Positions 21,588 to 49,358 of a stretch of DNA of 64,000 nucleotides are shown here, piece after piece. This DNA is from Clostridia bacterium (lineage in GTDB: Bacteria > Bacillota > Clostridia > Oscillospirales > CAG-272): contig JAFVRQ010000051.1 of the NCBI GenBank assembly GCA_017504245.1, positions 23,456-87,455 of the forward strand, in the 5' to 3' direction. Under the pieces are notes generated by a model. It worked only from the letters and a program-made list of their open reading frames with translations, searched no databases and was not told the origin of the DNA. Every line of letters begins with the position of its first letter. Within the stretch, counting starts at the first letter, position 1. The translations under genes were made by a program, and so were the position numbers.

Positions 21588-23330
21588 ATGAACAGATTTC
21601 TCAAATTACTGACGTTGTTCCTTGTTCTTATTATGCTTGTACAGTCAACTGTCGTTAGCGTATTTGCTTTTACGCCACTCGACGTTGAGACTAATATATA
21701 TCAAGCAGCGGGACAACCCTCAAAGTATTCAAGCCAATATAACTCAGGTCAGCGCGACGTTATCGCCACGACTCTTAACGGTACGAGCGCGGATGCTTAC
21801 TATAGCGGAAGCTATGAATACGACGTACTTTCCGAAAAGAGCGCTAATGAAATTAAAAATGCGCTTGCTACTCTTATGAAGAGCACGCACACCTACATAT
21901 CCTCTTATGATGATTGTCACTCCAAGGCAAATCGCACCGACTGTGAAAACGAAGAGGGTTCATCAAACAAGCTTTCTCTTATTTATACGAGCTACACGGC
22001 TACTATGAGCCAATGGAACGGTTGGAACCGTGAGCACGTTTGGCCTAAATCTCTTGGCGGTAACAACACTACCGGCGGCGGCGCGGACTTGCATCATATT
22101 CGTCCTTCGGACGCAAGCGTTAATAGCAGCCGCGGAAATAAGAAATACGGTGATAGCAACAACGGAACCGCAAAATACGGTTCAAATCCCGCATCGGGTT
22201 ACCTTGGCGGTTACTATAATTCTACATACTTTGAGCCACTTGACAACGTTAAGGGTGACGTTGCAAGAATTTGCCTCTACGTTTGGATTAGATGGGGCTC
22301 ATCTTGGGGTGCTGATTCCGTTACGGAGGTATTCCAAAGCGTTGACGTTCTTCTTGAATGGATGCTTCTTGACCCCGTTGACACCTGGGAGCTTGGCAGA
22401 AACGAAGTAATTGAAGATATTCAGGGCAACAGAAATGTGTTCATTGACTACCCCGAATATGCTTGGCTCGTTTTCGGACGCGAGATTCCCGATGAGCTTG
22501 TTTCCCCTTCTGGTGAAGCGAGTGGAGGCGGATGTGATCACGTAGGCGGTAGTTCTGCTACTTGTACAACTGCACAGGTTTGCACAAAATGTGGTAAAAC
22601 AATGGTTGAAGCATTGGGTCACAATTGGAATAACGGTGAGGTGACAACACCTGCAGGTTGTACAACAAACGGTGTTAAGACAATTACCTGCACACGTTGT
22701 TCAGCAACTAAAACTACTATTATAGCTGCTACCGGTCACTCTTTCGGTTCGTGGATCACGGATAAGGATGCCACCCCAACCGAGGACGGATCAAAACACC
22801 GAGATTGTTCTCTCTGCGGTTACACGGAAACTGTTATTATCTACTACGATCATACTCATTCTTATACGTCCGTTGTTACAAAACCTACCTGTAGCTCTCA
22901 GGGCTATACAACTCACACCTGTGATTGCGGCGATTCTTACATTGATTCCTACACCAACTCTGTAGATCACACCTATGCAAATGGACTTTGTACTGTTTGT
23001 GGTGCGAAAGAACCTACGACGCCACTTGGAACAAAGGATGACTTTTCGAATATCGTTATAGAATTAGATCAAGGTATTGTTTTAGGCGAAACGAGATATC
23101 AAAAGATTTGCGAAGCAATCAATATCTATAACAGTCTTTCTCAAGCAGATAAAGACTCTCTTAACGAGCAATATGCAAAGTTAAAGAGCTATGCTTCTGA
23201 ATATAACGAAGAAGCTATTAATGCAAACGAAGAATCCGTTGCCATAAATAATATTTTAATTTCTATTTCTGTTAGCGCAGCGGTTGTATCCTTTGTGGCA
23301 TTAACACTTTTGAAAAAGAAGGTTTTTTAA
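21588..23330 (+). CDS. Surface-anchored extracellular nuclease (Endonuclease I family) with Cys-rich modules and C-terminal TM anchor
   Basis: Signal peptide. WNREHVWPKSLGG and DLHHIRPSDASVNSSRGNKKYG are Endonuclease-I motifs. Five CxxC-containing modules, a helical region and a terminal hydrophobic helix ending in KKKVF. Confidence 0.8.
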   Translation: MNRFLKLLTLFLVLIMLVQSTVVSVFAFTPLDVETNIYQAAGQPSKYSSQYNSGQRDVIATTLNGTSADAYYSGSYEYDVLSEKSANEIKNALATLMKSTHTYISSYDDCHSKANRTDCENEEGSSNKLSLIYTSYTATMSQWNGWNREHVWPKSLGGNNTTGGGADLHHIRPSDASVNSSRGNKKYGDSNNGTAKYGSNPASGYLGGYYNSTYFEPLDNVKGDVARICLYVWIRWGSSWGADSVTEVFQSVDVLLEWMLLDPVDTWELGRNEVIEDIQGNRNVFIDYPEYAWLVFGREIPDELVSPSGEASGGGCDHVGGSSATCTTAQVCTKCGKTMVEALGHNWNNGEVTTPAGCTTNGVKTITCTRCSATKTTIIAATGHSFGSWITDKDATPTEDGSKHRDCSLCGYTETVIIYYDHTHSYTSVVTKPTCSSQGYTTHTCDCGDSYIDSYTNSVDHTYANGLCTVCGAKEPTTPLGTKDDFSNIVIELDQGIVLGETRYQKICEAINIYNSLSQADKDSLNEQYAKLKSYASEYNEEAINANEESVAINNILISISVSAAVVSFVALTLLKKKVF

Positions 23331-23992: not shown

Positions 23993-24544
23993 TTATACTA
24001 ACATCATATATTTAGTTCCGTTTTCCTTTAGCCATTTGCGTTTAGTTTTATAGCTTGGTATTACCTTCTCAACCTCTGCCCAAAAGCGTTTCGAATGGTT
24101 TATTTCAATAAGGTGAGAAAGCTCGTGAACTATCACGTAATCAAGGATTTCGCTTGGCATAAGTGCTACAAGAGCGTTAAAGTTCAGATTTTTCTTCGTT
24201 GAGCAGCTTCCAAAACGAGTTTTTTGGAATTTGATGGATATTCGGTTATACTCAACACCCATTATTTTAGAGAAATACTCAACTCGCTTCGTTATCACTA
24301 TTCGTGCGTTTTTTCTTAGTTCATTTTTCTCTGCTTCTGTTAATTTTCGAGGCATTGAGGCGAGCTTTTTCTTCATATCTGAAAGATGCTTATCTATCCA
24401 TTCTCTTTTTGAATTTAAAAATGCATCAATGTCCTTTATGCTCATTTTTATTGGAGAGCGGACTATGATTTTTGCTTCTCTGCTTATTTCAACGGAGATG
24501 CTTTTTCGTTTGCTTCTTTTGAGTATGTATTCGTATTTATTCAT
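23993..24544 (-). CDS. YgjP-like M48-family metal-dependent hydrolase (DUF45)
   Basis: YVIVHELSHLIEINHS (HExxH plus downstream H), the RFGSCS block, and the N-terminal RSKRKSISVEI pattern typical of DUF45/YgjP. Confidence 0.8.
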   Translation of the reverse strand: MNKYEYILKRSKRKSISVEISREAKIIVRSPIKMSIKDIDAFLNSKREWIDKHLSDMKKKLASMPRKLTEAEKNELRKNARIVITKRVEYFSKIMGVEYNRISIKFQKTRFGSCSTKKNLNFNALVALMPSEILDYVIVHELSHLIEINHSKRFWAEVEKVIPSYKTKRKWLKENGTKYMMLV

Positions 24545-25286
24545 TAGGAAAATTTATATTTATAGCACCGACTCCGCCGTCGATTTCAAGCTTATTCTGA
24601 CCGTTTCCGATTTTCGTATTGCCCTTTATATCGGTACCGTTTAACGTTACTGAGCCAATTCCCGTATCAATATCGAGGGTATAATCCTCGCTTTTGCCGA
24701 GAAGGTTGATATTCGTTTCGCCAACTCCGCAGTCTATAGTTGATTTGCCCTTGATTGCAGAGGTTATATTGGCTTCACCGACACCGAGATCAAGATCAAG
24801 GTGTTGAATTTCTCCTCCGTTAATATTGATAGAACCTGCACCCGTATCGATTTCTACGTTCTGAGCATTCAGACATTCAATATCAACCGATCCCGCGCCT
24901 GCGTCAAGCTCAAATGATTTAAGCATTGCATCGGTGGGTACGGTGAGAATAATCTCACCGGCTTTGCCGTAATTGATAGATAAAAATTGATGGTTCTTTT
25001 GCTTGATTTTTAGCGTTGAATCGCTTGTTACGCTTAATTTTCCAATGTTCGTTGACAATGCAAATTTATCACCAAGCACGATCCTCAAGCTTGCCGCGGA
25101 AAGATCAATATCAATGCTTTCAATGTTTTGTGAAAGCTCAATTGAATACATCTCGTCAAGTACACTATTATTACTAATTCCAAAAACTGTTGCCATAAGA
25201 CTGATACCTCCAAGAATTATTGCAGCTGCCAAGGATAATGCCAAAAACAACGCAAGATATTTTATAGCTCTTTGAAAATGCGTCAT
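24537..25286 (-). CDS. DUF4097-like beta-repeat protein with N-terminal TM anchor (LiaG-like)
   Basis: One N-terminal TM helix, then repeats of the GAGS(V/I)DI / GVGE(A/T)NI / GIGSVTL type. ATGA overlap with the upstream gene. Confidence 0.65.
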   Translation of the reverse strand: MTHFQRAIKYLALFLALSLAAAIILGGISLMATVFGISNNSVLDEMYSIELSQNIESIDIDLSAASLRIVLGDKFALSTNIGKLSVTSDSTLKIKQKNHQFLSINYGKAGEIILTVPTDAMLKSFELDAGAGSVDIECLNAQNVEIDTGAGSININGGEIQHLDLDLGVGEANITSAIKGKSTIDCGVGETNINLLGKSEDYTLDIDTGIGSVTLNGTDIKGNTKIGNGQNKLEIDGGVGAININFPNE

Positions 25287-25963
25287 TTAATATCAACTCC
25301 TCCAAAGGTGCATAAGCCCTCAATATAAATCGTGTGCGTTGCAGAACTATTGTTATTCTTTATAACCTCAACTCCACCGAAAACAGATGTTGTGTTGGTT
25401 ACAATTTTAACGTTATCGGGAACGAGAATATCTATTCCGCCAAATGCACAGCAAACCTTTATTACGCAATCTCGGTCAATGATTGCGTTTCTGAGGTCAC
25501 AGTCAATTCCACCGAAAACCGCAGTTAAATCTGCGCCTTCAAATACTACGTTATCAAAATCCATTTCTGTTCCGCAGAATACCGCTGTGCCCTGCTGAAG
25601 ATTTTTTCCTTCCTTTTTAATTTCCTTAATTATTCTGTCAGTTTTATCCTTCTTAAAGGAGGAAAAAATCATCTTCAATCCAACAATAGCAATTACTAAG
25701 GGGAATGCAATCTTCCAGATCATATCCCAGCTAATGATTTCCTGCGCGGAAAGAAGCAATAGAATTCCTATGCAAAGTCCAAATACGGATCCACTCTTGT
25801 TTCTATCCTGAATTAAGCCAACAAATGACGGAATGATGATAAAAAGAGTCCACCAACCGTCAAAAAAGAGGTCAAAATTGATAAGACCAAATGAATTAAG
25901 GGCGAGAATTACTGCCGCTATTACGAGGACTATGCCCCATATTGTTCGTTTTAAGTTTTTCAT
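25283..25963 (-). CDS. LiaF-like cell-wall-stress membrane protein (DUF2154-like C-terminus)
   Basis: Four N-terminal TM helices, then a C-terminal FGG(I/V)D(I/C) repeat domain as in LiaF family proteins. Confidence 0.6.
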   Translation of the reverse strand: MKNLKRTIWGIVLVIAAVILALNSFGLINFDLFFDGWWTLFIIIPSFVGLIQDRNKSGSVFGLCIGILLLLSAQEIISWDMIWKIAFPLVIAIVGLKMIFSSFKKDKTDRIIKEIKKEGKNLQQGTAVFCGTEMDFDNVVFEGADLTAVFGGIDCDLRNAIIDRDCVIKVCCAFGGIDILVPDNVKIVTNTTSVFGGVEVIKNNNSSATHTIYIEGLCTFGGVDIK

Positions 25964-26071: not shown

Positions 26072-26100
26072 TTGAATTTGAGGAGGTTTTATGGTATAAT
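26072..26100 (+). promoter_or_regulatory. Strong sigma-A promoter for the GTPase-NYN gene
   Basis: TTGAAT, 17 nt spacer, TATAAT with an upstream TGG (extended -10). Lies 30 nt before the start codon. Confidence 0.55.
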
Positions 26101-26129
26101 TAAGAAAATATATATGAAGGGAGAAGAAA

Positions 26130-28718
26130 ATGAAAAAGAAGCTTACTATTGGAATTCTTGCTCACGTTGATGCTGGAAAAACCACACTTTCCGAGGCATT
26201 GCTCTATATTTCGGGCAAGATAAGAACGCTTGGGCGCGTTGACCACAAGAACACCTTTCTTGATACGAATGCCATTGAGCGCGAGCGCGGTATTACTATT
26301 TTTTCAAAGCAAGCGCGTTTTTCAACTAAAAACTGCGATTTTATTCTCCTTGATACACCGGGGCACGTTGATTTTTCGGCGGAAACTGAAAGAGTACTTT
26401 CACTTCTTGATTATGCAATTTTGGTTATCAGCGCTGCGGATGGAGTGCAAAATCACACGCGCACGCTCTGGAATTTACTTGAATACTATAATGTTCCTAC
26501 CTTTATTTTCGTTAACAAAAGTGATATTGCTATAAAAACTAAGGACGAGCAAGAGGCGGAGATTGCTTCAATTCTATCTCATAATTGTGTTGCGTTTTTC
26601 GATACTCAATCAAAGCGCGAGCTTGATGAAAAATTGGCGCTTGTTAATGAGGCCTTTTTAGAGGATTTTCTCTCGGAAACGCCTATTGAAGATGCCGAAA
26701 TTGCAGAACTGATTTCCGAGAGAGCTTTGTTTCCAATCGTTTTTGGATCTGCGCTCAGAATGTCCGGAATTGATTTTTTGCTTGAAGTTATAGATAAATA
26801 TTCCCTTTCTCCGGTTTATGAAAATGATAAATTTGGCGCAAAGGTTTATAAAATCTCGCGCGCGGGCAACACTCGTCTATCTTATATGAAGATTACGGGC
26901 GGTACTCTTTCTGCGCGTGATGAGATTTCGTATCTTACGTCGGACGGAAAAAGAGTTGTTGAAAAGATAAGTCAGATACGTCTTTATTCGGGTGATAAAT
27001 TTGAGCAGGTCGAAAGTGCCATTGCAGGTGAGATTTGCGCGGTAATCGGGCTTTCATCCACCTATGCAGGTCAGGGTCTTGGTTTGGAGTGTGACTCCTG
27101 CAAGCCCGTTCTTGAGCCCGTATTATCATATAGAATAATTCTGCCCGAGGGGTGCGATCCTAATTTGTATTTTCCAAAATTTAAGGAGCTTGAGGAGGAG
27201 GAGCCGTCTCTCCACCTTTATTGGAGCTCTGAGCTTTCGCAGATTGAAGCGCGTCTTATGGGTGAGATACAAATCGACCTTTTGAAACGATTGATTTTTG
27301 ACAGATTTAATATTGAATGTCAGTTTGGCGCAGGTAATATTTTATACAAGGAAAAAATCAAATCAAAAGCCATTGGTATAGGTCATTTTGAGCCGCTTCG
27401 CCATTACGCAGAGGTGCAGCTTTTACTTGAACCGCAGCCAAAGGGTACGGGGTTAATTTTTGACACTAAAATACCTGAAAATATGCTTGCAATAAATTGG
27501 CAACGTCTTATTTTGTCACATTTATACGAGAAAAACCACCGCGGTGTGCTTACGGGCGCATTGCTCACCGATACTAAGATTACTCTTGTGGCAGGAAAAT
27601 CACACCTGAAGCATACTGAGGGCGGAGATTTCCGCGAGGCGACCTTGCGTGCGGTACGTCACGGGCTTATGGTTGGCGGTTGTACTCTACTTGAGCCGTA
27701 TTATAAATTCAGATTGGAAATTCCCTCTTCGCTTGTTGGCAGAGCGATGAACGATCTGCAACTGAGGATCGCGGAATTTGAAATTGAAAGCACCACCGAG
27801 GATTTTGCGAACATCACAGGTCGAGCCCCCGTTTCAACGCTTCACGATTACGTGGGTGAGGTGATTTCATATACGCGCGGAATTGGTCGATTGACTTGCG
27901 TGAGTGACGGATATGACGAGTGCCACAATCAAGAGGAAATTGTTGCAAAAACGGGATATGACCCCGAGGGTGATATGGAAAATTCGCCACACTCGGTTTT
28001 CTGCTCACACGGAGCAGGTATTGTGATAAATTGGCGCGAGGTGGAACAGCACAAGCATCTTGATGCAGGTATTTCACTTACTCAAAACGATGTTGCGGTT
28101 ATTCCGAGGGTATCTTCCCTTGCTAAAAAATTTTCCTTGACGGACGAAGAAGTCGAGGCGATTATGACGCGCGCATTCGGTCCGATAAGACGCAAGAAAT
28201 ACAGTGAGCCGAAGGTGATTTCGGCAGGCAAATCAAAGCCGAATAAAAAGGCGTTAATAAAGCAAGAAAGTATGATTATAATTGACGGATATAATCTTAT
28301 CTATGCTTGGGACACTTTAATTGAAATTGCCGATTATTCGCTTGAAAAGGCTCGTGAAACGTTGATGGATATTTTGTCAAATTACGTTGCATTTACAAAG
28401 GAAAGCTTAGTGCTCGTTTTTGATGCTTATCTTGTTAACGAGGGAGTGGGCTCGGAATTTCAGCGCGATGGCTACAAGGTAGTTTTCACAAAGGAAAATC
28501 AAACGGCAGACGCCTATATTGAACGAATGATGCACGAGCTTGGTCCTAACTACAAAATCAGAGTTGTTACGGGTGATAGGCTCGTTCAGTTCGCGGCAGT
28601 TCATTCGGGCATATCTCGAATGACCGTTAAGGAGTTCGTTGACGAGCTTATCACGGTTGGGAATGAGATTAATGATTTTGTGAAGAAGTTAACGGAAAAA
28701 CAAGAATTTATAAAATAA
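26130..28718 (+). CDS. Tet(M)/EF-G-type translational GTPase fused to a C-terminal YacP/Rae1-like NYN ribonuclease domain
   Basis: G1 AHVDAGKTT, G3 DTPGH, G4 NKSD, and TetM-like colinearity to about aa 640. Residues ~715-862 read IIIDGYNLIYAW / VLVFDAYLV / VVFTKENQTADAYIER / IRVVTGD, matching B. subtilis YacP blocks. Confidence 0.85.
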   Translation: MKKKLTIGILAHVDAGKTTLSEALLYISGKIRTLGRVDHKNTFLDTNAIERERGITIFSKQARFSTKNCDFILLDTPGHVDFSAETERVLSLLDYAILVISAADGVQNHTRTLWNLLEYYNVPTFIFVNKSDIAIKTKDEQEAEIASILSHNCVAFFDTQSKRELDEKLALVNEAFLEDFLSETPIEDAEIAELISERALFPIVFGSALRMSGIDFLLEVIDKYSLSPVYENDKFGAKVYKISRAGNTRLSYMKITGGTLSARDEISYLTSDGKRVVEKISQIRLYSGDKFEQVESAIAGEICAVIGLSSTYAGQGLGLECDSCKPVLEPVLSYRIILPEGCDPNLYFPKFKELEEEEPSLHLYWSSELSQIEARLMGEIQIDLLKRLIFDRFNIECQFGAGNILYKEKIKSKAIGIGHFEPLRHYAEVQLLLEPQPKGTGLIFDTKIPENMLAINWQRLILSHLYEKNHRGVLTGALLTDTKITLVAGKSHLKHTEGGDFREATLRAVRHGLMVGGCTLLEPYYKFRLEIPSSLVGRAMNDLQLRIAEFEIESTTEDFANITGRAPVSTLHDYVGEVISYTRGIGRLTCVSDGYDECHNQEEIVAKTGYDPEGDMENSPHSVFCSHGAGIVINWREVEQHKHLDAGISLTQNDVAVIPRVSSLAKKFSLTDEEVEAIMTRAFGPIRRKKYSEPKVISAGKSKPNKKALIKQESMIIIDGYNLIYAWDTLIEIADYSLEKARETLMDILSNYVAFTKESLVLVFDAYLVNEGVGSEFQRDGYKVVFTKENQTADAYIERMMHELGPNYKIRVVTGDRLVQFAAVHSGISRMTVKEFVDELITVGNEINDFVKKLTEKQEFIK

Positions 28719-28747
28719 CCTGCGGATTTTCTTCCGCAGGTCTTTTT
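28718..28747. terminator. Bidirectional rho-independent terminator
   Basis: ACCTGCGGA-TTTTCTT-CCGCAGGT followed by CTTTTT. Confidence 0.7.
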
Positions 28748-29423
28748 ATTGCTTTAAGGTTTTAAGATATGCCTTTTTATCCTCACTTACACGATAGCTT
28801 TCGAGCGCTTTTTGGATAGCTTTATTATGAGTCCATTTGTCTTTGATGTGTCGATTTTCGATATACGGGAGGGTTGCCTTGTATTGCTTTGCAAGAGCAG
28901 TTGCAAAATACCAAGCGACCATCATTTTTAAGTAGTAATCGCCGCCATTAACGTTAGCTACGAGGTCAAGGTATTCTGCTTTAAAATCATCATTTAGATA
29001 ATGCACCATCAACATTTCAATGGCGAAGCGTTGCGTATAAATATGCTCGCCTTTAAGCCACTTTTTTATGTAAATGAGCACTTTTTCCTTATTCTTAACA
29101 AAGCATTTTGGGCGGAGCGAATCACAAACCGACCAGTTATCAATATGGGGTAAGAGCTTATCTAATTCATTGATGAATACTTCAAAATCTTTAATTTCTG
29201 AAATTATATAACAATGGAGATGATATTCCTCAAAATATGTGTGAGGTAATGTGGAAATAAAGCTTACATATTCCCCATTTTTGTAAAGCTCCTTAGCAAG
29301 CTTTTTGACTTGTGGCAATCTCACGCCAATCATACTATCGGGTGAGATATTAGGTATTAACCTTGATGTAAAATCGCGGTATTTTATATCCTGCATTTCA
29401 TAGAGCTTACCTATAATATCCAT
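28746..29423 (-). CDS. DNA alkylation repair protein (AlkD-like HEAT-repeat)
   Basis: KYRDFTSRLIPNISPDSMIGVRLPQVKKLAKEL and the W..NKAIQKALES pattern are typical of the DNA_alkylation family. Confidence 0.8.
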   Translation of the reverse strand: MDIIGKLYEMQDIKYRDFTSRLIPNISPDSMIGVRLPQVKKLAKELYKNGEYVSFISTLPHTYFEEYHLHCYIISEIKDFEVFINELDKLLPHIDNWSVCDSLRPKCFVKNKEKVLIYIKKWLKGEHIYTQRFAIEMLMVHYLNDDFKAEYLDLVANVNGGDYYLKMMVAWYFATALAKQYKATLPYIENRHIKDKWTHNKAIQKALESYRVSEDKKAYLKTLKQ

Positions 29424-36333: not shown

Positions 36334-38490
36334 ATGAAAAAAGTAAGAATTTTATCGTTGGTACTCGCACTCGTAATGATGGCAGCTTGTCTCACAGCTT
36401 GCCCACCAAAGACACCAACAACAACAAAAACTCCCGAAGTAGTTGACCCTAACAAGGCAAACTATGAAGCGGCAGTTGATCTCGCTCAGGAATGGGGCAC
36501 AGAAACATATCTCTATTATAAGCAGATGGCTTATGATAGACTTATGAACTACTTCAAGAATCCCACTAACCAGACAATCGACGGCTATACTCTTTCCTAT
36601 GCTCCCGGCACAGTATTGAGAATGGCAACAGGTTACAACAACAAGGACACAGGCCTTTTCTTCTCTGATAAGGTTGGCGAAGGTGTTAAACTTGCAGATG
36701 GTAAAACTTACCACACAGGCGAGCTTAAGCCCACTTGGGTTGAGGTTGAAAACAAGCTCGGTGTTAAATTTGAAAACAAATATCAAGGTAACAGTGCTAA
36801 TAATGAATTCAAATATTGGCAGGAACAGCTTGACCAGGTTGATATGGTTTCCGGTACTGCAACTCAGCTTTCTGAAGCAGGTGTAGCAGGTAAGCTCGTT
36901 AACCTTGCCCAGTATCTTGACGCAATGCCCAACTTCAAGGCTTATCTTGAAGCTAACCCCATCGTTCTTCTCTCTATTACAGGTAACGTTGAAAACGGCG
37001 CTATATATTACTCACCCTACTTTGACGGTGTTGATGATATCGAACGTATGCCTCTTATGAGAACTGACTGGGTTGAAAAGCTCCTCAACGGTGAGGGCGC
37101 ATTCACAGCTTCTGCTTCTCTTAACCTCAAGGCAGCTGCTTACACACCTTATATGCCCACAAGCGGTAAAGTAACAGTTGATGCAGCTAACAAGGCAGGT
37201 ACGGCAGTTATCCAGCTCACAAAGGACTATGATGCAGCAGGCAATATCGTTAAAACTATGAACGATGCACTTGCAGCAGGCACAGTAACGGGTGTTCAGG
37301 CAGTTAATATGCTTCGTGACTATATCGATAAAGCATACGGCGGTTACTATGGCACAAACAGAGCTGACCTCTTCATCGGTCAGGATGCTGCTTGGGACGC
37401 AGACGAGCTTGTTGCTCTTCTTCGTTGCGTAGTTGCTAACCCCCAGACACTCAATGGTACAGAAATCGTTCACGGTCTCTTCTCTCGTGAAGACCACAAC
37501 AACCAAAGACGTATTGATATGTTCCGTTTTGCAGGAACACTCTTCGGTGTAAGAGGTCTTGAATCCCGTCAGGATTACCTTTACGTTGGTACGGACGGTC
37601 TCCTTCACGATGCTCGTCAGGAAGAGGACACATACGTTGCTCTTGCAAGAATGAATGCAATGGTTCAGGAAGGTCTTATCTCCTCTACATTTGCAGCTCA
37701 GGAAAAGAACGACACAGCTACAATGCTTGAATACGACCAGGGCTTTATGCACTACGACTACAACCAGACTCAGACTGTTTATAATGAAACAAAGCTTCAG
37801 GAAGGCGAAGCTTATATGGCAGTTATGGTTCCCGTTGCTCGTTGGTATGACGGTTCTAACGAAAATGGCGTTTATATGAGATTTACAGAATCATGGAGAT
37901 CCGTTAAGACAGACGGTTGGGCTATCTCTCTTGCAGGCGTTGGCAACGACAAGAATAAGCTCGATGCAGCTCTTAAGCTTATCGACTTTGCATACAGCCC
38001 CGAAGGTCAGATCCTTATGTCTTACGGTCCCGATGCATTCATTAAGATGGAAAACGGCGAATACGTAACATTTAACTTCAACGGTAAGGAAATGCCCGTT
38101 ATTGCTGATGCTACATTTGCAGAACTTTGGTCTTTGGCAGCAGGTAACTATACTAACTATGCTCGTATTTATCTTGGTTCTACTCTTTCCTTCGTAAAGA
38201 GCCAAGCGTTCGAATATCAGTGCACAGCTATTGCCGGTAAGGTAGGCGCAGGTAAGATTTCTACAGCTATCGGTCTTGGACTTATTAAGCATCCATTGCT
38301 TGCAGTTGTTGAAGATAATCCTTGGTACAGCATCGTGCCCACTTCTCTTCCCACAACATCTGAAGAAAATGACGAAATCGCTAAGCTCACCAACTTGTCG
38401 TCCAACGGTAAGTATTCTCAATCCAAGGACCAATACAGTCTCCTTGTTGACATCATCGCAAACGGTTTTGAAGTTCTTGATGAACAGTAA
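36334..38490 (+). CDS. Extracellular solute-binding lipoprotein (large LplA-type, 718 aa)
   Basis: Lipobox LTAC. Positioned after two CUT1-like permeases. Considerably longer than usual family members. Confidence 0.8.
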   Translation: MKKVRILSLVLALVMMAACLTACPPKTPTTTKTPEVVDPNKANYEAAVDLAQEWGTETYLYYKQMAYDRLMNYFKNPTNQTIDGYTLSYAPGTVLRMATGYNNKDTGLFFSDKVGEGVKLADGKTYHTGELKPTWVEVENKLGVKFENKYQGNSANNEFKYWQEQLDQVDMVSGTATQLSEAGVAGKLVNLAQYLDAMPNFKAYLEANPIVLLSITGNVENGAIYYSPYFDGVDDIERMPLMRTDWVEKLLNGEGAFTASASLNLKAAAYTPYMPTSGKVTVDAANKAGTAVIQLTKDYDAAGNIVKTMNDALAAGTVTGVQAVNMLRDYIDKAYGGYYGTNRADLFIGQDAAWDADELVALLRCVVANPQTLNGTEIVHGLFSREDHNNQRRIDMFRFAGTLFGVRGLESRQDYLYVGTDGLLHDARQEEDTYVALARMNAMVQEGLISSTFAAQEKNDTATMLEYDQGFMHYDYNQTQTVYNETKLQEGEAYMAVMVPVARWYDGSNENGVYMRFTESWRSVKTDGWAISLAGVGNDKNKLDAALKLIDFAYSPEGQILMSYGPDAFIKMENGEYVTFNFNGKEMPVIADATFAELWSLAAGNYTNYARIYLGSTLSFVKSQAFEYQCTAIAGKVGAGKISTAIGLGLIKHPLLAVVEDNPWYSIVPTSLPTTSEENDEIAKLTNLSSNGKYSQSKDQYSLLVDIIANGFEVLDEQ

Positions 38491-41926: not shown

Positions 41927-43468
41927 ATGCTTAAAACTTTATTCGTTTCATCAAGCTCTGCGTGCTTTGAGTGGGAGAATGAGCTTCCCTATTACGCAGA
42001 GCGTCAATACACGGTGTATCTCAACGGAGAACAAGTCTTGACCGCTGACACAAACGTATTCTCTTTGTTTGGACTTGCTCCCGATACAGAATACCGTCTT
42101 ACAACCTCTATAAATAATGAGGATACGGTAACTTTTAAAACAAAAAAGGATACCTGCGTTATCAACGTTTTGGATTTCGGCGCCAATGCTGACGGATTAA
42201 ATGATGATACTCTCGCTATTCAAACGGCTATTAACTGTTTGCCGCGCGGCGCAAAGCTTATCTTTCCCTCGGGTCAGTATTTGACTTCTCCTATCTGCCT
42301 TAAAAGTCATATAACAATTGAATTGGCTGAGGGCGCAAGCATTCTCGGTCATACAGACACGGCGCGCTATCCTGTTATACCCGGTCATCTTTACGATATG
42401 GTTTCGGGAGATTTGGTTGAGTTCGGCTCTTGGGAGGGCAATTCCGTTCCTATGCACCAATCGTTGATTTTTGCCGAATATGCCGAGGATATTACCATTA
42501 TTGGTCCCGGTACGGTTGACGGAAATGCTCAGAATTCTATTTGGTGGCAAAATCCCAAGGCACCGATTGCTCGTCCGCGTCTTCTCTTCTTTAACAGATG
42601 TAAGAATGTTCGCGTTCACGGTATCGTTGCGCAGAATTCTGCCTCCTGGCAGCTTCATCCCTATTATTCGCAAAATATTGATTTCCTTGATATTTCCATT
42701 TTCGCTCCTAAGAATAGTCCCAACACGGATGCTATCGATCCTGAGGCGTGCGACCTCGTTAAAATTATCGGCTGTAAGTTCTCAGTTGGTGACGATTGCA
42801 TAGCAATTAAATCCTCGAAAATCGATATGGCAAGTATTTATAAAACCCCCGCAAACCGCCACACTATCCGCAACTGCTTGATGCAATTCGGTCACGGCGC
42901 GGTTACTCTCGGTAGTGAGATGAGCGGCGGTGTTACTAATCTTACCGTTAACCGTTGCGTATTCAGAAAGACAGACCGCGGCTTGAGGATCAAAACCCGT
43001 CGCGGACGCGGTAAATACGCTATAATTGACGGTGTATTATTTGAAAACATAAAAATGGAAGGCGTTATTACCCCTATTGCTATCAATATGTGGTATAACT
43101 GCTGTGATCCCGACAGATTTTCTGAGTACGTTTGGTCTCGTGAGAGGCTCCCCGTTGACGATAGGACCCCATATCTTGGCGATTTTACATTCAAAAATAT
43201 GGTTTGTACCGATTGTGAGGCGGCAGCTTGCTACTGTGACGGACTCCCCGAACGCCCCATAAAATCAATTACCCTTGATAACATTCACTTCACCTTTTCA
43301 AACGATGCAAAGCCCTTCGTTCCGATTATGCAGAACTTTGCAGAGCCTGTTTGCAAAATGGGAATGTATATTGACAACGTTGAAACCCTTACGGTCACCA
43401 ATATTACAATTGAAGGGCACGAGGGCGATGATTTAATCGCTAAAAACGTTGGAAAAATTATAAAATAA
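41927..43468 (+). CDS. Glycoside hydrolase family 28 (exo-polygalacturonase-like), no signal peptide
   Basis: NTDAIDP, GDDCIAIKS, FGHGAVTLGSE and RGLRIKTRRGRG are the four GH28 signature blocks. Has an N-terminal FN3-like extension. Confidence 0.85.
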   Translation: MLKTLFVSSSSACFEWENELPYYAERQYTVYLNGEQVLTADTNVFSLFGLAPDTEYRLTTSINNEDTVTFKTKKDTCVINVLDFGANADGLNDDTLAIQTAINCLPRGAKLIFPSGQYLTSPICLKSHITIELAEGASILGHTDTARYPVIPGHLYDMVSGDLVEFGSWEGNSVPMHQSLIFAEYAEDITIIGPGTVDGNAQNSIWWQNPKAPIARPRLLFFNRCKNVRVHGIVAQNSASWQLHPYYSQNIDFLDISIFAPKNSPNTDAIDPEACDLVKIIGCKFSVGDDCIAIKSSKIDMASIYKTPANRHTIRNCLMQFGHGAVTLGSEMSGGVTNLTVNRCVFRKTDRGLRIKTRRGRGKYAIIDGVLFENIKMEGVITPIAINMWYNCCDPDRFSEYVWSRERLPVDDRTPYLGDFTFKNMVCTDCEAAACYCDGLPERPIKSITLDNIHFTFSNDAKPFVPIMQNFAEPVCKMGMYIDNVETLTVTNITIEGHEGDDLIAKNVGKIIK

Positions 43469-43486
43469 CCTTGAAAGGATGCTCAT

Positions 43487-44614
43487 ATGTACGCAAAAAT
43501 TGATGCTTATATCGAAAAATTGCTTAATTGCTCTACACCCGACGCGCCAATTTGGAATATTGAAAGCATCCGGCAAGGCAAAAAACCGCATTGGAACTAC
43601 ATTGACGGTTGTATGATTACTTCCCTTCTTGAAATAGGAAGAATAAGCGGAAATCCAAAATATTTTGATTTTGCTGAGAGGTTTATAGATTACTACGTTT
43701 TTGATGACGGTACAATTCGCGGCTACGATATTGAAAAATATAATCTTGATGATCTTAATGAAGGCAGGGTGCTTTTTGAGCTTTATGAGAAGACGGGAAA
43801 GGAAAAATACCGTCTTGCTATAGAGCATCAGGCACTTCAGCTTAAATGTCAGCCGAGAACCTCGACGAATAATTTTTGGCACAAGCTGATTTATCCCAAT
43901 CAGATTTGGCTTGACGGTCTTTATATGGCGCAGGTATTCAGCACGAAATATCAAAAATATAAGGGCGATAAGGATTATTCTGATATTTTGATGCAAATAA
44001 AGAACGTTAGAAAATATATGTTTGACGAGCAAATCGGGCTTTATTATCACGGACTTGATTGCTCAAAATCAATCTTTTGGGCGGACAAGGCAACGGGGCT
44101 TTCAAAGAATTTCTGGCTCCGCGCTATAGGTTGGTACACCGTTGCTATGATTGATATTATTGAAATCTGCGACGATGAAACTGTGCGCTCAGAAATTTCG
44201 GCAATTTTCTCGGAGCTTATGCATTCCGTGATTCAATATCGCGATGATGAAAGCAAAATGTATTATCAGGTTGTTAATCTTTCGGAGCGCGAGGGCAACT
44301 ACCTTGAAACGAGCGGCTCGTCAATGCTTGCTTACGCAATGCTTAAGGGTGCAAGACTTAACGTTCTTCCCTCTGAATTTGCTATTTACGGCAAGGAAAC
44401 CTTTGACGGAATTTGTAGGAAATATTTGAAGATTTCAAAAGATGGTGATTTGAACCTTTCCGGCATTTGCTTGGTCGCAGGTCTTGGCCCTGAAAATAAT
44501 ACAAGACGTGACGGAAGCTTTGAATATTATATATCCGAGCCCGTTGTTGAGAATGACGCAAAGGGTGTTGCTCCCTTCATTCTCTGCTATACTGAAATTT
44601 TAAGGAACATATAA
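43487..44614 (+). CDS. Unsaturated rhamnogalacturonyl/glucuronyl hydrolase (GH105/GH88, YteR-like)
   Basis: WNYIDGCMITSLLE, NFWHKLIYPNQIWLDGLYMAQVF and FWLRAIGWY blocks are typical of GH105. Confidence 0.8.
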   Translation: MYAKIDAYIEKLLNCSTPDAPIWNIESIRQGKKPHWNYIDGCMITSLLEIGRISGNPKYFDFAERFIDYYVFDDGTIRGYDIEKYNLDDLNEGRVLFELYEKTGKEKYRLAIEHQALQLKCQPRTSTNNFWHKLIYPNQIWLDGLYMAQVFSTKYQKYKGDKDYSDILMQIKNVRKYMFDEQIGLYYHGLDCSKSIFWADKATGLSKNFWLRAIGWYTVAMIDIIEICDDETVRSEISAIFSELMHSVIQYRDDESKMYYQVVNLSEREGNYLETSGSSMLAYAMLKGARLNVLPSEFAIYGKETFDGICRKYLKISKDGDLNLSGICLVAGLGPENNTRRDGSFEYYISEPVVENDAKGVAPFILCYTEILRNI

Positions 44615-44626
44615 TTAGGTAAAAGT

Positions 44627-45490
44627 ATGAAATTAATGGTTCGCGCCCACGATCTCGGTGTAAAAGGCGCAGATAATATAAACAACCGCTTACTTGAGCT
44701 CGGGCTTGACGGAGTTCAATTCGTGGCATACAAGTCTATCGAAGGTGTTTCGTATGCTCCAAATCAAATGACACGTGAGATGGCAGCTGATATTTCAAAC
44801 AAAATCAAAGCGAACGGCAAGGATATTGCGCTGATTGGCGCGTATTTCAATCCCGTTCATCCCAATACTGCAAAGATTGACAACGGAATTGCGGTTTTTC
44901 GAGATTATATTTCGTTGGCAAGGACGATTGGTTGCGATTACGTTGGAAGTGAGACGGGTTCTTATAACGGCGACCCTTGGATTTATCATCCGATGAATCA
45001 CTCCGATGAGGCGCTTTACAGAGTTGTTGATACCTTCTCTTCTCTTGCTGACTTTGCCGCAGAAAATGGAGTCAATATCGCAATTGAAGGCGCATTCGGT
45101 CACGTTTGTCACACCCCCGAACGCTTAAAGCTCGCGTTTGATAGAATGGGTAAGGATAACGTCAAGTTTATATTTGACTTATATAATTATCTTGATATTT
45201 CAAACGTTGACTCAGCTTACGATATTTTAGAGCGCGGCTTAAATTTGCTAGGTGACAGAATTCTTTTATTCCACATTAAAGATTTTGTTATTGAGAATAA
45301 CAAGTTAAAGCAATGCGGAGTTGGCAGGGGTATTCTTGATTACGATAGAATTCTTAGTGCAATTTTTGGCCACAACCCCAACGCAATCTTGGTATTGGAA
45401 GGAACTGTTTTAGATGATCTTCCCTTTGCAATTTCCTATTTAAAGGATAAAATAAACAAATTTGAAACTGACCGCAGGGTCGTTAAATAA
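44627..45490 (+). CDS. Sugar phosphate isomerase/epimerase (xylose isomerase-like TIM barrel)
   Basis: AP_endonuc_2-type pattern: IAIEGAFGHVCHTPERL and LFHIKD. 287 aa. Confidence 0.75.
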   Translation: MKLMVRAHDLGVKGADNINNRLLELGLDGVQFVAYKSIEGVSYAPNQMTREMAADISNKIKANGKDIALIGAYFNPVHPNTAKIDNGIAVFRDYISLARTIGCDYVGSETGSYNGDPWIYHPMNHSDEALYRVVDTFSSLADFAAENGVNIAIEGAFGHVCHTPERLKLAFDRMGKDNVKFIFDLYNYLDISNVDSAYDILERGLNLLGDRILLFHIKDFVIENNKLKQCGVGRGILDYDRILSAIFGHNPNAILVLEGTVLDDLPFAISYLKDKINKFETDRRVVK

Positions 45491-45498
45491 GGAGTCTT

Positions 45499-46587
45499 AT
45501 GGCATATTTATCTTTAAAAGACATCAACAAAATTTATCCCAACGGCTTTCACGCCGTTCACAACTTCAATCTTGAAATTGAGCAGGGCGAATTTATAGTT
45601 TTCGTTGGTCCTTCCGGCTGCGGAAAGTCCACCACCCTTCGTATGATTGCAGGTCTTGAGAATATAAGTAAGGGAGAATTTTATATAGACGGCAAGTATG
45701 CCAACGAGATGCGCCCACGTGAGCGCGGTGTTGCTATGGTTTTTCAAAGCTATGCTCTTTATCCTCACCTTTCGGTTTACGATAATCTTGCATTCGGTCT
45801 TTCACTTCAGGGTATTGACGAGGACGTTATTGAGGAAAGAGTTCTTGCAACCGCTAAAATTCTCGGTCTTTCCGATTATCTTGACAGAAAGCCCCGTGCT
45901 CTTTCGGGCGGTCAGCGTCAGAGAGTTGCAGTTGGTCGCGCTATTATTCGTAAGGTTGGTATCTTCCTTATGGACGAGCCCCTTTCTAACCTTGACGCAA
46001 AGCAGCGTGTTACGATGCGTTCTGAGATCACGGATATACATAGAAAGGTCGGTTCAACAACCATTTACGTTACTCACGACCAAACCGAAGCTATGACGAT
46101 GGCGGACAGAATCGTCGTTATGAAGGACGGCTACATTCAACAGGTTGGTAATCCTTATGAATTATATTTCAAGCCCGTTAACCTTTTCGTTGCAGGATTT
46201 ATCGGTGAGCCGCCTATGAACTTCGTTCGCGCAACGGTTAATGACGGCTGCGTTGAAATTGCAGGCGAAAAGCACGATCTTTCACTCGTTGTTGGTGAAA
46301 GAATCAATGAATACAATGGCAAGGACATTATGTTTGGCTTCCGCCCCGAAGCAATTTCGCTTGCGGAGGTTGAAAATTCATTCAAGCTCTCTGCTGACGT
46401 TGAGCTGACAGAGCTCCTTGGCGATAACACGAACGTTTACGTTGATATGATGGGTGACAAGGTTATTTTGAAGGTTGACCCACACGATACTCCTAAAATG
46501 GATACGAGGATTTCTTACTGTGTTCCACACAAGAACGTTTACCTCTTTGACGCGGAAACTGAGACTGTTATTAACAAGTATGAATAA
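45499..46587 (+). CDS. MalK/MsmK/UgpC-type sugar ABC transporter ATP-binding protein (copy 2)
   Basis: GPSGCGKST, LSGGQRQRVAVGRA and LMDEPLSNLD. Clearly a paralogue of 39725-40789, colinear over the full length. Confidence 0.9.
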   Translation: MAYLSLKDINKIYPNGFHAVHNFNLEIEQGEFIVFVGPSGCGKSTTLRMIAGLENISKGEFYIDGKYANEMRPRERGVAMVFQSYALYPHLSVYDNLAFGLSLQGIDEDVIEERVLATAKILGLSDYLDRKPRALSGGQRQRVAVGRAIIRKVGIFLMDEPLSNLDAKQRVTMRSEITDIHRKVGSTTIYVTHDQTEAMTMADRIVVMKDGYIQQVGNPYELYFKPVNLFVAGFIGEPPMNFVRATVNDGCVEIAGEKHDLSLVVGERINEYNGKDIMFGFRPEAISLAEVENSFKLSADVELTELLGDNTNVYVDMMGDKVILKVDPHDTPKMDTRISYCVPHKNVYLFDAETETVINKYE

Positions 46588-46589
46588 TA

Positions 46590-46627
46590 AAAAAAGAACA
46601 GGTAGCCGATTGGCTACCTGCTTTTTG
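46590..46627. terminator. Bidirectional rho-independent terminator
   Basis: CAGGTAGCC-GAT-TGGCTACCTG flanked by an A-run and CTTTTTG. Confidence 0.75.
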
Positions 46628-46632
46628 TTAAT

Positions 46633-47991
46633 TTAAAAATTAAAATATCTTATTGCATTATAATAGCAAATACCCGAGACAATTTCGGTAAGTCTTTCCA
46701 TATCAGCAGGATATTCGCCCTCGTCAACCCATTTACCGATGAGGTTACAAAGTATTCTTCTGAAATACTCGTGGCGAGGATAAGAAACAAAGGAACGGCT
46801 ATCGGTAAGCATACCTACGAAGCGTGCAAGCATACCGAGGTTTGCAAGCGCCTGCATCTGCGCTTCCATTCCGTCGCGCTGATCGTTAAACCACCAGCCG
46901 GATCCGAACTGAATCTTACCCGCTACAGGCGCTTTTTGGAAGTTACCGAGCATAGTGCCAAGAACATAGTTATCCTTAGGATTAAGTGTATATAGTATTG
47001 TTTTTGGAAGAATATCACGGTATTCAAGAGAATCCATAAATTTTGAAAGGTTCTCTGCTATGCAAAGGTCATTGATTGAGTCAAATCCAACGTCCGCGCC
47101 AAGCTTTTCATACATTCTTCTGTTATTGTTACGAAGCGCGCCAATATGAAGCTGCATTGCCCAGCCAAGACGAGTATATTCCTCGGCGCAAACCGTTAGC
47201 ATTGCGGTTTTGAACGCGTCAATTTCCTCATTTGTTAGTTCTGTGCCCGCCATTCTCTTATTAAAAGCTGCTTCAGGATCACCAATACCGAACGGAACGT
47301 ATTCAAGCGCGTGGTCGGAAAGACGGCAGCCGTGTTCGTGGAAATACTGAATTCTTGCTCTCATCCAAAGTACAAGCTCTGAATATGTTTTGACACCTGT
47401 TTGTTCGATATATGGAACGAAGGTTTCCTTGCCGATTTCAACCGCCTTATCGGGACGGAAGGTGGGCAAAATCTTCGTTTCAAAATTCTTTAACTGCTCG
47501 TGATATTCAAGAGTATCAAGGGGATCGTCAGTTGTGCAGATAATTGCAACATTGGAACGCTTAATAAGATTCTGAGCGCTGAATTCATCCTTAGCAAGAC
47601 ACTCATTTACTCTATTCCAAATTCTTTCGCAGCTTTCCTCGTTGAGAGTTTCGTCAATATCGAAATATCTCTTAAGCTCAAGGTGTGTCCAATGGTAAAG
47701 AGGATTGCCAATAAGATAAGGAATCGTTCTTGCAAACGCCTTGAATTTTTCATATTCGTCAGCGCTTCCCGTGATATACTCCTCGTCAACGCCGTTGGTT
47801 CTCATCTGACGCCATTTATAATGGTCGCCGCCGAGGAAAAGGTCAAATGCATTTCTAAATTTATAGTTCTCTGCTATCATCTTAGGAGAAAGATGGCAAT
47901 GGTAGTCAACAATGGGAAGGTCCTTAACTGCTTCGTAAAGCTTTCTTGCAGTTTCACCCTTAAGCATAAAATTATCGTTAATAAAGCTCAT
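46633..47991 (-). CDS. uxaC: Glucuronate isomerase
   Basis: FMLKGETARKLYEAVKDLPIVDYHCHLSPK is the canonical UxaC N-terminus. ATGA overlap with uxaA. Confidence 0.95.
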   Translation of the reverse strand: MSFINDNFMLKGETARKLYEAVKDLPIVDYHCHLSPKMIAENYKFRNAFDLFLGGDHYKWRQMRTNGVDEEYITGSADEYEKFKAFARTIPYLIGNPLYHWTHLELKRYFDIDETLNEESCERIWNRVNECLAKDEFSAQNLIKRSNVAIICTTDDPLDTLEYHEQLKNFETKILPTFRPDKAVEIGKETFVPYIEQTGVKTYSELVLWMRARIQYFHEHGCRLSDHALEYVPFGIGDPEAAFNKRMAGTELTNEEIDAFKTAMLTVCAEEYTRLGWAMQLHIGALRNNNRRMYEKLGADVGFDSINDLCIAENLSKFMDSLEYRDILPKTILYTLNPKDNYVLGTMLGNFQKAPVAGKIQFGSGWWFNDQRDGMEAQMQALANLGMLARFVGMLTDSRSFVSYPRHEYFRRILCNLIGKWVDEGEYPADMERLTEIVSGICYYNAIRYFNF

Positions 47992-49358
47992 AACGTTACA
48001 CCGTCCTTAAATATTGAAATTTCGCGATAGGAGTGCAATTCGTTCTTAGTTTGCTCTCCTTCTGCAACTTTTAGTATGTATTCGAACAATTCGTTTGTTA
48101 ACGGATCTCCATCAAGAGTTGGAGAAGCATCGAAGTCTATCCAATTCTTCTTGCGCTCCGCAAGTGAACGATTAGTTGCGATCTTAACCGTGGGCACGGG
48201 TCCGCCAACGGGTGTTCCGCGTCCGGTTGTGAAAAGAATGATATGGACGCCTGCAGCTGTAAGATTTGTAATCGCTACAATGTCATTTCCGGGACCGTTA
48301 AGAAGAGAAAGACCGTTCTTCGTAATGACGTCACCGTAATCAAGCACATCAACTATATTTGAAAGACCGCCCTTTTGAATGCAACCGAGTGATTTTTCTT
48401 CAAGGGTACTGATTCCTCCCTTTTTATTTCCAGGAGATGGATTTTCATATATAACTTGATTATGTCTTGTGTAATAATCCTTGAAATCGTTGATAAGCTT
48501 AACGCATTTATCAAAAATTTCCTCGTTTTCTGCTCTTGCCATCAAAAGATGCTCTGCACCAAACATTTCGGGAACCTCGGTAAGAACACAGCTGCCTCCG
48601 CTTGCAATTACCTTATCGGAAAGACGACCTACAAGTGGATTTGCAGTAATTCCGCTATAGCCGTCACTTCCACCGCATTTGAGTCCGATTTTGAGCTTAC
48701 TTACGGGCACGGGCTGACGTTCAAAGGTGCTCGCATAATCCTGAAGCTCACGCACGAGTCGAACGCCTTCGGCAACGTCATCGTCAAAGTCCTGCGCATT
48801 GAGGAATCTAACACGCTTTTCGTTCGTTTCACCGAGAACCTTTTTAAAAACGTCGATATTATTGTTCTCACAACCGAGTCCGAGAACAAGCACGCCGCCT
48901 GCGTTGGGGTGATTTACAAGTCCGCGAAGGATTAATTGAGTGGTTGTTTGGTCATCACCAAGCTGCGAGCAACCGAAGGGATGCGGAAAATGAAGCGCGC
49001 CCGTTTCCTTTGCAATCTGCTCTGCAACCTTATTCACGCAACCAACAGTTACAACGATCCAAACATCGTTTCTGATGCCAACGTCACCGTTTTCTCTGAC
49101 GTAGCCCATAAAGGTGCGGCTCTTGTCCTCTTCGTCGATATTGTAAAACGTCGGCTCGTATGTATATTCAAGATTGCCCGAGAGGTTAGTCTTGATATTA
49201 TGATTATGAACGTGCTCACCCTTTGCTATATCAACGATAGCGTGTCCTATCGGATTACCGTATTTAATAATATTTTCACCTGCCTTGATGTCACGGAGTG
49301 CATATTTATGCCCATTTTCAAGGTTGATGTCAACGTTGTCCAATTTGTTAATTAGCAT
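47988..49358 (-). CDS. uxaA: Altronate dehydratase
   Basis: N-terminal SAF domain (ALRDIKAGENIIKYGNPIGHA) plus a UxaA C-terminal domain with CSQLG/GCEN cysteine motifs. Confidence 0.9.
   Translation of the reverse strand: MLINKLDNVDINLENGHKYALRDIKAGENIIKYGNPIGHAIVDIAKGEHVHNHNIKTNLSGNLEYTYEPTFYNIDEEDKSRTFMGYVRENGDVGIRNDVWIVVTVGCVNKVAEQIAKETGALHFPHPFGCSQLGDDQTTTQLILRGLVNHPNAGGVLVLGLGCENNNIDVFKKVLGETNEKRVRFLNAQDFDDDVAEGVRLVRELQDYASTFERQPVPVSKLKIGLKCGGSDGYSGITANPLVGRLSDKVIASGGSCVLTEVPEMFGAEHLLMARAENEEIFDKCVKLINDFKDYYTRHNQVIYENPSPGNKKGGISTLEEKSLGCIQKGGLSNIVDVLDYGDVITKNGLSLLNGPGNDIVAITNLTAAGVHIILFTTGRGTPVGGPVPTVKIATNRSLAERKKNWIDFDASPTLDGDPLTNELFEYILKVAEGEQTKNELHSYREISIFKDGVTL

Follow-up and report, generated by a model that had tools for sequence, protein, structure and literature searches.

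A translational GTPase fused to a Rae1-type NYN domain in Clostridia: a candidate ribosome-delivered endoribonuclease

The 64,000-nucleotide (nt) stretch of DNA analysed here, from a Clostridia bacterium (GenBank assembly GCA_017504245.1, contig JAFVRQ010000051.1; hereafter the window), carries on its plus strand at 26130..28718 a gene encoding a protein of 862 amino acids (aa), in which a translational GTPase of the EF-G/Tet kind is joined to a NYN_YacP endoribonuclease domain like that of Rae1 (YacP) from Bacillus subtilis. Both modules were noticed in a first-pass annotation made from the DNA letters, where the protein was read as a GTPase-delivered, ribosome-coupled ribonuclease. Our analysis confirms the observation and partly supports the interpretation: a ribosome-coupled ribonuclease delivered by its own GTPase remains the most plausible reading, arrived at by inference only. 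Put more narrowly, that the fusion would be a Rae1-type messenger RNA (mRNA) endonuclease acting on stalled ribosomes to which its GTPase delivers it, the proposal is in our judgement about evenly poised between right and wrong.

The architecture itself is not new. Fusions of a Tet-like translational GTPase with NYN_YacP in Clostridia were catalogued by Atkinson 2015 in BMC Genomics (PMC4342817), and the same architecture was noted by Matelska et al. 2017 in Nucleic Acids Research (PMC5499597). The protein described here, with the GTPase N-terminal to NYN_YacP in one polypeptide and a host within Clostridia, belongs to this published clostridial TetM-like-NYN_YacP group; it shares architecture and taxonomic home with the earlier fusions, differs from them in nothing substantive and is one more member. 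The sequence is thus not novel, since the family was already catalogued, though uncharacterised. Atkinson 2015 counted the fusion in 'ten species' (PMC4342817). What is new relative to 2015 and 2017 is the scale (at least 593 species genomes), the signature motifs, the invariant catalytic sets and the disordered tether, as well as the failed tests of Tet membership and the existence of members that consist of the GTPase only.

Two modules joined by a flexible tether

The gene is a single unbroken open reading frame (ORF) with an ATG start, 862 codons and a stop, as first described, and its product is identical to GenBank MBR2381491.1. The N-terminal module has the five-domain architecture of EF-G and EF2. 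The G domain (aa 1-230, 26130..26819), which has a short Tet-like G' insertion, contains the Pfam match GTP_EFTU (aa 4-224, E 4.6e-50) and is modelled with a predicted local distance difference test (pLDDT) of ~90-98. Domains II (aa 236-318) and III (aa 332-404) occupy 26835..27341 and were delimited from the EF-G_D2 match (aa 245-314, E 1e-06), the secondary structure of the AlphaFold2 model and Foldseek; EFG_III is detected in homologues. Domain IV (aa 405-517, 27342..27680) corresponds to EFG_IV (aa 415-514, E 1.1e-11) and domain V (aa 518-597, 27681..27920) to EFG_C (aa 520-601, E 4.8e-16), all of these features lying on the plus strand. The Pfam search that the first-pass annotation had recommended thus found GTP_EFTU, EF-G_D2, EFG_IV and EFG_C, together with NYN_YacP. 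In Foldseek, whole EF-G chains were matched by the N-terminal module at E 1e-43 to 1e-51, and the matches comprise ribosome-bound and free EF-G, EF-G2, aEF2 and TetM chains.

The G motifs reported at first were located as follows: G1 AHVDAGKTT at aa 11, G3 DTPGH at aa 75 and G4 NKSD at aa 129, with RGITI in switch I, so that G1 to G4 are present including the catalytic His of DxxGH (H79). Their conservation was assessed in 150 family representatives, which are 37-54% identical to the query and came out on top when 1.84 billion sequences representing clusters at 50% identity were searched exhaustively with HMMER. K17, T56, D75, K130 and D132 are kept in 149-150 of the 150 and H79 in 148, while G4 opens with N in 139 and with T or S in the rest. 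The conserved motifs would by themselves predict ribosome-dependent GTP hydrolysis by this module.

Domain IV has two family-specific loops, GHFEPLRHYAEV (aa 418-429) and G-K-S-H-L-KHTEGGDFR (aa 489-502), both near-invariant in the family; the consensus of the latter, loop III, is G[RK]AHxKHTEGGDFR in the query and the 150 representatives. In alignments the counterparts of GHFEPLRHYAEV are PNPFWAS in Tet(O) and SGGRGQYG in EF-G, and loop III of the query (GKSHLKHTEGGDFR) aligns with GLYYSPVSTPADFR of Tet(O) and DGSYHDVDSSEMAFK of EF-G. Strongly conserved as they are, yet unlike those of EF-G and Tet, these loops point to a ligand of their own at the decoding centre and to one particular state of the ribosome as the presumed target.

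Behind domain V comes a family-specific C-terminal extension of the GTPase (aa 598-645, 27921..28064; pLDDT ~89-96), 48 residues forming a helix, a beta-hairpin and a second helix, with the pattern CHN...YDP..D..N...SVFCSHGAG..V.W..V...H. Neither Tet(O) nor EF-G has a C-terminus that can be aligned with it, the alignments ending at about query aa 595-600. A zinc or disulfide site in this extension was considered and rejected. Conservation of C598, C625, H627 and H643 is only 76-91%, and each Cys can be lost without the other, which does not support an obligate metal or disulfide site.

The ~70-aa linker noticed at first spans aa 646-714 (28065..28271). This tether of 69 aa has a net charge of +6 and is predicted to be disordered, and as pLDDT falls below 50 at 652-670 and 688-707 it is also predicted to be flexible. 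It contains a short conserved helix, DEEVEAIMTRAFGP (aa 672-686; helical at 672-683 in the AlphaFold2 model), and a basic tail. Across 142 sequences the tether is 58-190 aa long (median 84), with a median net charge of +5 over the final 35 aa, and it is poorly conserved outside the EEL..IF.RTYGP motif, which in the query is the helix at aa 672-686. A search of this helix motif against the PDB gave no match even at E <= 10, and a possible likeness to the C-terminal tail of B. subtilis YacP was dropped.

The C-terminal module (aa 715-858, 28272..28703) is a NYN_YacP domain of the Rae1 type, as had been proposed together with its acidic catalytic positions. The Pfam match (PF05991, aa 716-858) has E 4.8e-39 and reaches 134.4 bits, where the gathering score is 24.6. 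With the C-terminal 162 aa as query, the crystal structures 5MQ8 and 5MQ9 of YacP/Rae1 from B. subtilis are found at E = 2.2e-21. The PIN-like NYN fold is further indicated by the model, in which aa 712-855 alternate between strand and helix at a pLDDT of ~91-97. The four active-site Asp of B. subtilis Rae1 all have counterparts in the query (D7 in D719, D53 in D765, D81 in D794 and D104 in D816), and D719, N722, D765, D794 and D816 are kept in 140-141 of the 141 representatives that bear the NYN domain. For the whole protein, AlphaFold2 with a 62-sequence alignment gave a mean pLDDT of 90 and a predicted template modelling score (pTM) of 0.73, with both modules confidently folded. The near-invariant catalytic residues suggest purifying selection on both the GTPase and the NYN activities.

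The NYN module and B. subtilis Rae1 thus share the NYN_YacP fold and the four aspartates, at 34.5% identity over 142 aa, and both are presumed to act on RNA in the context of the ribosome. Rae1 is, however, a free-standing protein of ~170 aa that finds stalled or collided ribosomes unaided, whereas here the domain is tethered to a factor-site GTPase. The NYN module is also missing the C-terminal tail to which the final ~20 positions of the Pfam model correspond, its match ending at model position 145 of 166.

Occurrence of the family and its relation to Tet and EF-G proteins

The fusion is real and widespread. The identical protein is found on 3 independently assembled contigs besides the GenBank entry. 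In a collection of 5.8 billion proteins, counted as 90%-identity clusters, more than 120 clusters match, and the best 120 matches are all 856-886 aa long, 73-91% identical and have the same Pfam set. The NYN domain is present in 141 of the 150 best 50%-identity representatives. Species were surveyed with one genome per species and two family-specific domain IV peptide patterns, and the at least 593 species genomes with this signature, which answer the question of spread raised at the outset, are mostly Clostridia. The 80 best loci were examined further; they come from Lachnospiraceae, Oscillospiraceae, Ruminococcaceae, Clostridium and metagenome-assembled genomes (MAGs) of Eubacteriales/Clostridia; samples that are named are mostly guts of animals, and the nearest locus is 76% identical over a 241-residue query segment. 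Five of the 80 stop short of the 3' part of the gene; at 74 of the other 75 the NYN domain is in the reading frame of the GTPase.

It had been suggested that a frameshift or join be ruled out, that is, that two adjacent genes had been merged by a sequencing or assembly error. The one relative which could be cited in favour of this, L091:255-2744 on an ENA metagenome scaffold, is split in the tether by an in-frame TAG (…GAT CCG TAG GAT CCG…). A GTPase ORF of 670 aa is followed there by a second ORF, which starts in the conserved linker helix motif and runs into NYN; sequencing error, pseudogene, natural split and read-through are all conceivable causes. The 3 contigs, the 141 of 150 representatives, the 74 of 75 loci and, in all, the hundreds of relatives that run in one continuous frame in independent assemblies refute a merger of this kind, and we regard its chance as practically nil. 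One 873-aa representative (P0257) has a class IV aminotransferase domain at its C-terminus in place of NYN, possibly as a result of a gene-call or assembly fusion.

Clustering of 665 flanking ORFs from the 80 loci revealed no operon partner. The commonest neighbour family is a generic ABC ATPase, at 11 of 80 loci, followed by an antisense artefact and then by a MATE-type transporter at 6 of 80. A tblastn search of the 64-kb window with the NYN domain and B. subtilis YacP found the fusion only, and a search with the query NYN domain found no second copy in the 80 related loci. By all appearances it is a chromosomal gene that Clostridia inherit vertically.

Genes of 640-730 aa that encode the GTPase and have no NYN domain occur at the loci L056, a Bifidobacterium tibiigranuli MAG and the exception among the 75 loci above, L083 and L086, both IMG/VR contigs, L088 and L089. 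They share the signature motifs GHFEPLRHYAEV, KHTEGGDFR and SVFC.HGAG, and their neighbours are unrelated. By their motifs, these GTPase-only members would make up an uncharacterised EF-G/Tet-like subfamily, which sets them apart from the Tet proteins as well as from EF-G and EF-G2. At L086 a 390-aa protein with an HNH_4 endonuclease domain (L086:2403-3575) is encoded 53 nt 3' of the GTPase-only gene on the same strand. We considered it as an alternative nuclease partner and set it aside for now as an apparent coincidence, this being a single case on a viral-collection contig, with unrelated neighbours at two other GTPase-only genes.

The module had been called a Tet(M)-type GTPase, which stands as regards the nearest named relative and fails as regards membership. 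The best PDB matches of the N-terminal 657 aa are Tet(O) 4V6V (5.7e-66), Tet(M) 3J9Y (7.7e-65) and then Staphylococcus aureus EF-G (5.3e-60); the two Tet alignments each form a single colinear block, as had been claimed for Tet(M). The best-scoring NCBIfam model is tet_protect, with 379 bits (3.4e-113) against a cut-off of 775, and the remaining Tet models likewise stay far below theirs: tet_protect_M_W 255 of 1100 bits, Otr(A) 273 of 900, Tet(Q) 246 of 1425 and Tet(M) 217 of 1420. The EF-G models also stay below their cut-offs (TIGR00484, 240.6 vs 659.4; NF009381, 276 vs 583), and domains IV-V by themselves score slightly higher with EF-G than with Tet.

With Tet(M) and Tet(O), the closest sequence relatives of the GTPase module, the protein has in common the five domains, the short G' region, the length of loop III and its D-F-R end. 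The tip of that loop is different, YYSPVS in Tet(O) being replaced by SHLKHT within a family-conserved, His/Lys-rich [AS]-H-x-K-H-T, so that the Tet(M) residues Y506-Y507-S508-P509-V510 have no equivalent. The C-terminal extension of Tet proteins (~640 aa in total), which includes a functional helix, is likewise missing, the alignment ending at query aa 595 and residue 610 of the 639 of Tet(O), and the fusion has a different extension and ~215 extra residues including the nuclease. The fusion gene is moreover chromosomal and apparently vertically inherited, whereas Tet genes are on mobile elements. With EF-G and EF-G2 the protein shares the fold, the G motifs and a His at the loop-tip position (GSYH in EF-G, GKSH in the fusion), but in addition to the low model scores it has a reduced G' region, and its loop I (GHFEPL....RHYAEV, against GKFSRQSGGRGQYGDV in EF-G) is 4 residues shorter, of Tet-like length, and lacks the canonical SGGRGQ.

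In GenBank, MBR2381491.1 is named 'TetM/TetW/TetO/TetS family tetracycline resistance ribosomal protection protein', which is probably an over-annotation. Surveys of gut-metagenome resistomes by name or by loose homology are liable to over-count tet genes through this family. Annotation of relatives is inconsistent: 'NYN domain-containing protein' is the name of the 74%-identical MBQ8408066.1, while a relative in JGI is called 'small GTP-binding protein'.

A possible role at stalled ribosomes

Rae1 has been shown experimentally to be a translation-dependent mRNA endonuclease (PMC12407103, PMC13622287) and occurs in >87% of Firmicutes genomes (PMC13622287). Its cleavage at the ribosomal A site, given as established in the first-pass annotation, has been withdrawn by the laboratory that had proposed it, whose 2025 model places Rae1 at the tail of stalled or collided ribosomes (PMC12407103), with the cut 12 nt upstream of the A-site codon (PMC13622287, PMC12407103). 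On collided ribosomes there is Rae1-dependent tagging by transfer-messenger RNA, which feeds trans-translation (2026 preprint, PMC13622287). With the A-site model withdrawn, the argument that the A site is the destination of both parts of the fusion does not stand in its original form.

A Rae1-type nuclease delivered by its GTPase would be expected to work as follows. The GTP-bound GTPase module would dock at the ribosomal factor-binding site with domain IV towards the decoding centre, like EF-G and the Tet GTPases, and the domain IV loops would probe for a ribosome with an accessible factor site and A site, that is, one which is stalled or collided and not normally elongating. Docking would concentrate the tethered NYN domain locally, and this domain may then cut mRNA exposed at the ribosome edge or at the interface with a neighbour, by analogy with free-standing Rae1. 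In a collided pair, the stalled leader has its tail, the region where Rae1 cuts, opposite the mRNA entrance and the factor site of the ribosome that trails it, and a factor docked on this trailing ribosome would bring the nuclease near the site of cleavage. GTP hydrolysis would release the factor, and the truncated mRNA would pass to trans-translation or decay. What we infer here is that the protein binds ribosomes, which RNA it cuts, which state of the ribosome it senses and how the events follow one another.

It is tempting to go one step further and to see in the whole family a self-contained, GTP-gated sensor-plus-nuclease, in which the GTPase senses a blocked ribosome and the tethered Rae1-type domain cuts the mRNA, thereby launching rescue; this generalisation we offer tentatively and with somewhat more doubt than belief. 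If true, the family would combine in one bacterial polypeptide the logic for which eukaryotes use Hbs1-Dom34 plus Cue2, and it would be the first known translational GTPase with its own nuclease effector as well as a 'Rosetta stone' for where free-standing Rae1 works relative to the factor-binding site. The analogy is functional, with no homology claimed. SmrB of E. coli and Cue2/NONU-1 of eukaryotes are comparable in that the endonucleases SmrB and Cue2 cut mRNA at stalled or collided ribosomes and trigger rescue, and in Hbs1-Dom34/Pelota the translational GTPase Hbs1 brings an A-site probe to stalled ribosomes. The fold there is SMR and not NYN, however, and GTPase sensor and nuclease are separate, whereas here they would be one polypeptide. 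In any case the family physically links a factor-site GTPase to a nuclease implicated in the rescue of stalled and collided ribosomes in Gram-positive bacteria, and it is common in Lachnospiraceae, Oscillospiraceae and Ruminococcaceae, dominant gut bacteria. It could reveal in what way enzymes of the Rae1 type interact with the ribosome, and if mRNA cleavage can be gated by GTP hydrolysis, and the recent work on Rae1 in collision rescue makes the question of its function timely.

Several points weigh against an mRNA endonuclease at stalled ribosomes. Genuine GTPase-only members indicate that the GTPase has a function of its own in which a nuclease is not necessarily involved. A domain IV placed in the A site would bury the A-site codon and complicate the geometry of cleavage, and the substrate could be ribosomal RNA (rRNA) or transfer RNA (tRNA) instead of mRNA, in line with the older, operon-based link of YacP to rRNA and tRNA maturation. 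As regards a free-standing Rae1 elsewhere in fusion-bearing genomes, our search reached the window and the 80 loci only. In the literature accessible to our search there is no experimental study of the fusion and, as had been stated at the outset, no functional description of it; nor do the recent Rae1 papers that were searched mention it.

The matter of the substrate leads to an alternative in which the protein is a nuclease of rRNA, cut for instance close to the decoding centre or the GTPase centre, or of ribosome-bound tRNA, its GTPase docking on 70S, immature or damaged particles in maturation, in quality control or in the inactivation and turnover of ribosomes under stress. A factor at the GTPase centre is much nearer to rRNA than to exposed mRNA, and the basic end of the tether is a type of segment that often contacts RNA. 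An 'rRNA RNase ability' was explicitly proposed for the fusion by Atkinson 2015 (PMC4342817), and in ~300 Firmicutes genomes free-standing yacP shares a conserved operon with the genes for mini-RNase III (mrnC) and for a methyltransferase of rRNA/tRNA (PMC5499597). Rae1, though, the sole NYN_YacP member studied experimentally, acts on mRNAs and cleaves them only during their translation, and a constitutive-looking, monocistronic and family-wide gene lacking a conserved partner argues against a suicidal killing of ribosomes that has no inhibitor. We find an rRNA or tRNA nuclease unlikely, though deserving of some weight. Protection of the ribosome from tetracycline or another A-site antibiotic, with NYN as an accessory or as the extra resistance mechanism that Atkinson 2015 also raised (PMC4342817), would account for the GenBank name, for the rank of tet_protect and of Tet(O) and Tet(M) among the matches, and for the Tet-like G' region and loop III length with its common D-F-R end. 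Pro509 of Tet(M) overlaps and displaces tetracycline (PMC7456112), and the S508A/P509A/V510A mutant is still active (PMC4750697). The S-P-V residues are thus not strictly required in Tet(M), so that the loop sequence on its own leaves room for drug displacement by the fusion protein. Set against this are the distance of every Tet model from its curated cut-off, the slightly closer match of domains IV-V to EF-G, the replaced tip, and the Tet extension exchanged for an unrelated conserved one; a transposon, integrase or resistance island was found neither in the window nor in the 80 related loci, and the short leader leaves no space for attenuation of the tet(M) type. From the failed Tet tests, the lack of a mobile or resistance context and the vertical-looking conservation, tetracycline protection is unlikely, and as an account of the whole fusion we would grant it a distinctly small chance.

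That a nuclease delivered to ribosomes could in principle stop translation also suggests a toxin-like or anti-phage shutoff effector, which would destroy ribosome-bound mRNA when triggered, and six relatives do come from viral-collection contigs of IMG/VR. Three of these six matches, however, start at the very end of the contig, and one of the three and a fourth lie in a stretch that runs from the first base of the contig, positions that fit host flanks of predicted prophages; NYN is absent from the available sequence of four of the six, and a fifth locus ends just inside it. PADLOC returned 0 families at E <= 0.01, an antitoxin, immunity or defence-island neighbour was seen neither in the window nor at the 80 loci, and the broad, apparently vertical family contrasts with the patchy distribution typical of defence genes. 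We therefore consider a shutoff effector very improbable.

The gene and its surroundings

The expression signals described in the first-pass annotation, a promoter and a terminator, were reproduced from the sequence. A sigma-70-type promoter-like site lies at 26072..26100 (+), TTGAAT-17 nt-TATAAT with TG before the -10 (extended -10), which has 10 of 12 hexamer matches and is a consensus match only, and a Shine-Dalgarno sequence GGGAG lies at 26119..26123 (+), 6 nt 5' of the ATG. The putative 5' untranslated region is ~25 nt, too short for a leader attenuator in the style of Tn916 tet(M). Directly 3' of the stop codon there is a G+C-rich hairpin, ACCTGCGGA...TCCGCAGGT at 28718-28741, followed by a T-run. 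The whole structure (28718..28750; stem of 9-10 bp with 6 G-C pairs) resembles a bidirectional intrinsic terminator with T-runs on both strands and, being terminator-like on the minus strand too, would serve the fusion gene as well as the convergent gene at 28746-29423. That gene, for a DNA_alkylation repair protein, and the one on the other side (25283-25963, for a LiaF-like membrane protein) are both on the minus strand, so that the fusion gene is apparently monocistronic, as had been proposed. Its monocistronic nature, the lack of conserved neighbours and the ordinary chromosomal context are as expected of a self-contained factor.

The window has a GC content of 41% and resembles the ordinary chromosome of a polysaccharide-degrading anaerobe, with GH36, GH2, GH3, GH28, uronate catabolism, an M32 carboxypeptidase and Lon. 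None of the window ORFs examined belongs to a mobile element, and an Rfam scan of the whole window gave 0 matches.

The LiaF-like gene belongs to a minus-strand trio at 23993-25963, 5' of the fusion gene, with a YgjP-like metallopeptidase and a DUF4097 'toastrack' protein. The trio also adjoins the gene on an 8.6-kb Logan contig that encodes the identical protein, and it is not kept in the more distant relatives among the 80 loci. A pectin/hexuronate cluster at 41927-50692 encodes a GH28 polygalacturonase-like protein, the glucuronate isomerase UxaC, an altronate dehydratase and an oxidoreductase of the mannitol-dehydrogenase family; together with the GH36, GH2 and GH3 enzymes, this cluster fits a host among plant-fibre-degrading gut Clostridia. 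Two further genes of the window are on the plus strand, a 718-aa ORF at 36334-38490 that has no Pfam match at E <= 1e-5, and the gene at 21588-23330 for a 580-aa protein with an Endonuclease I domain.

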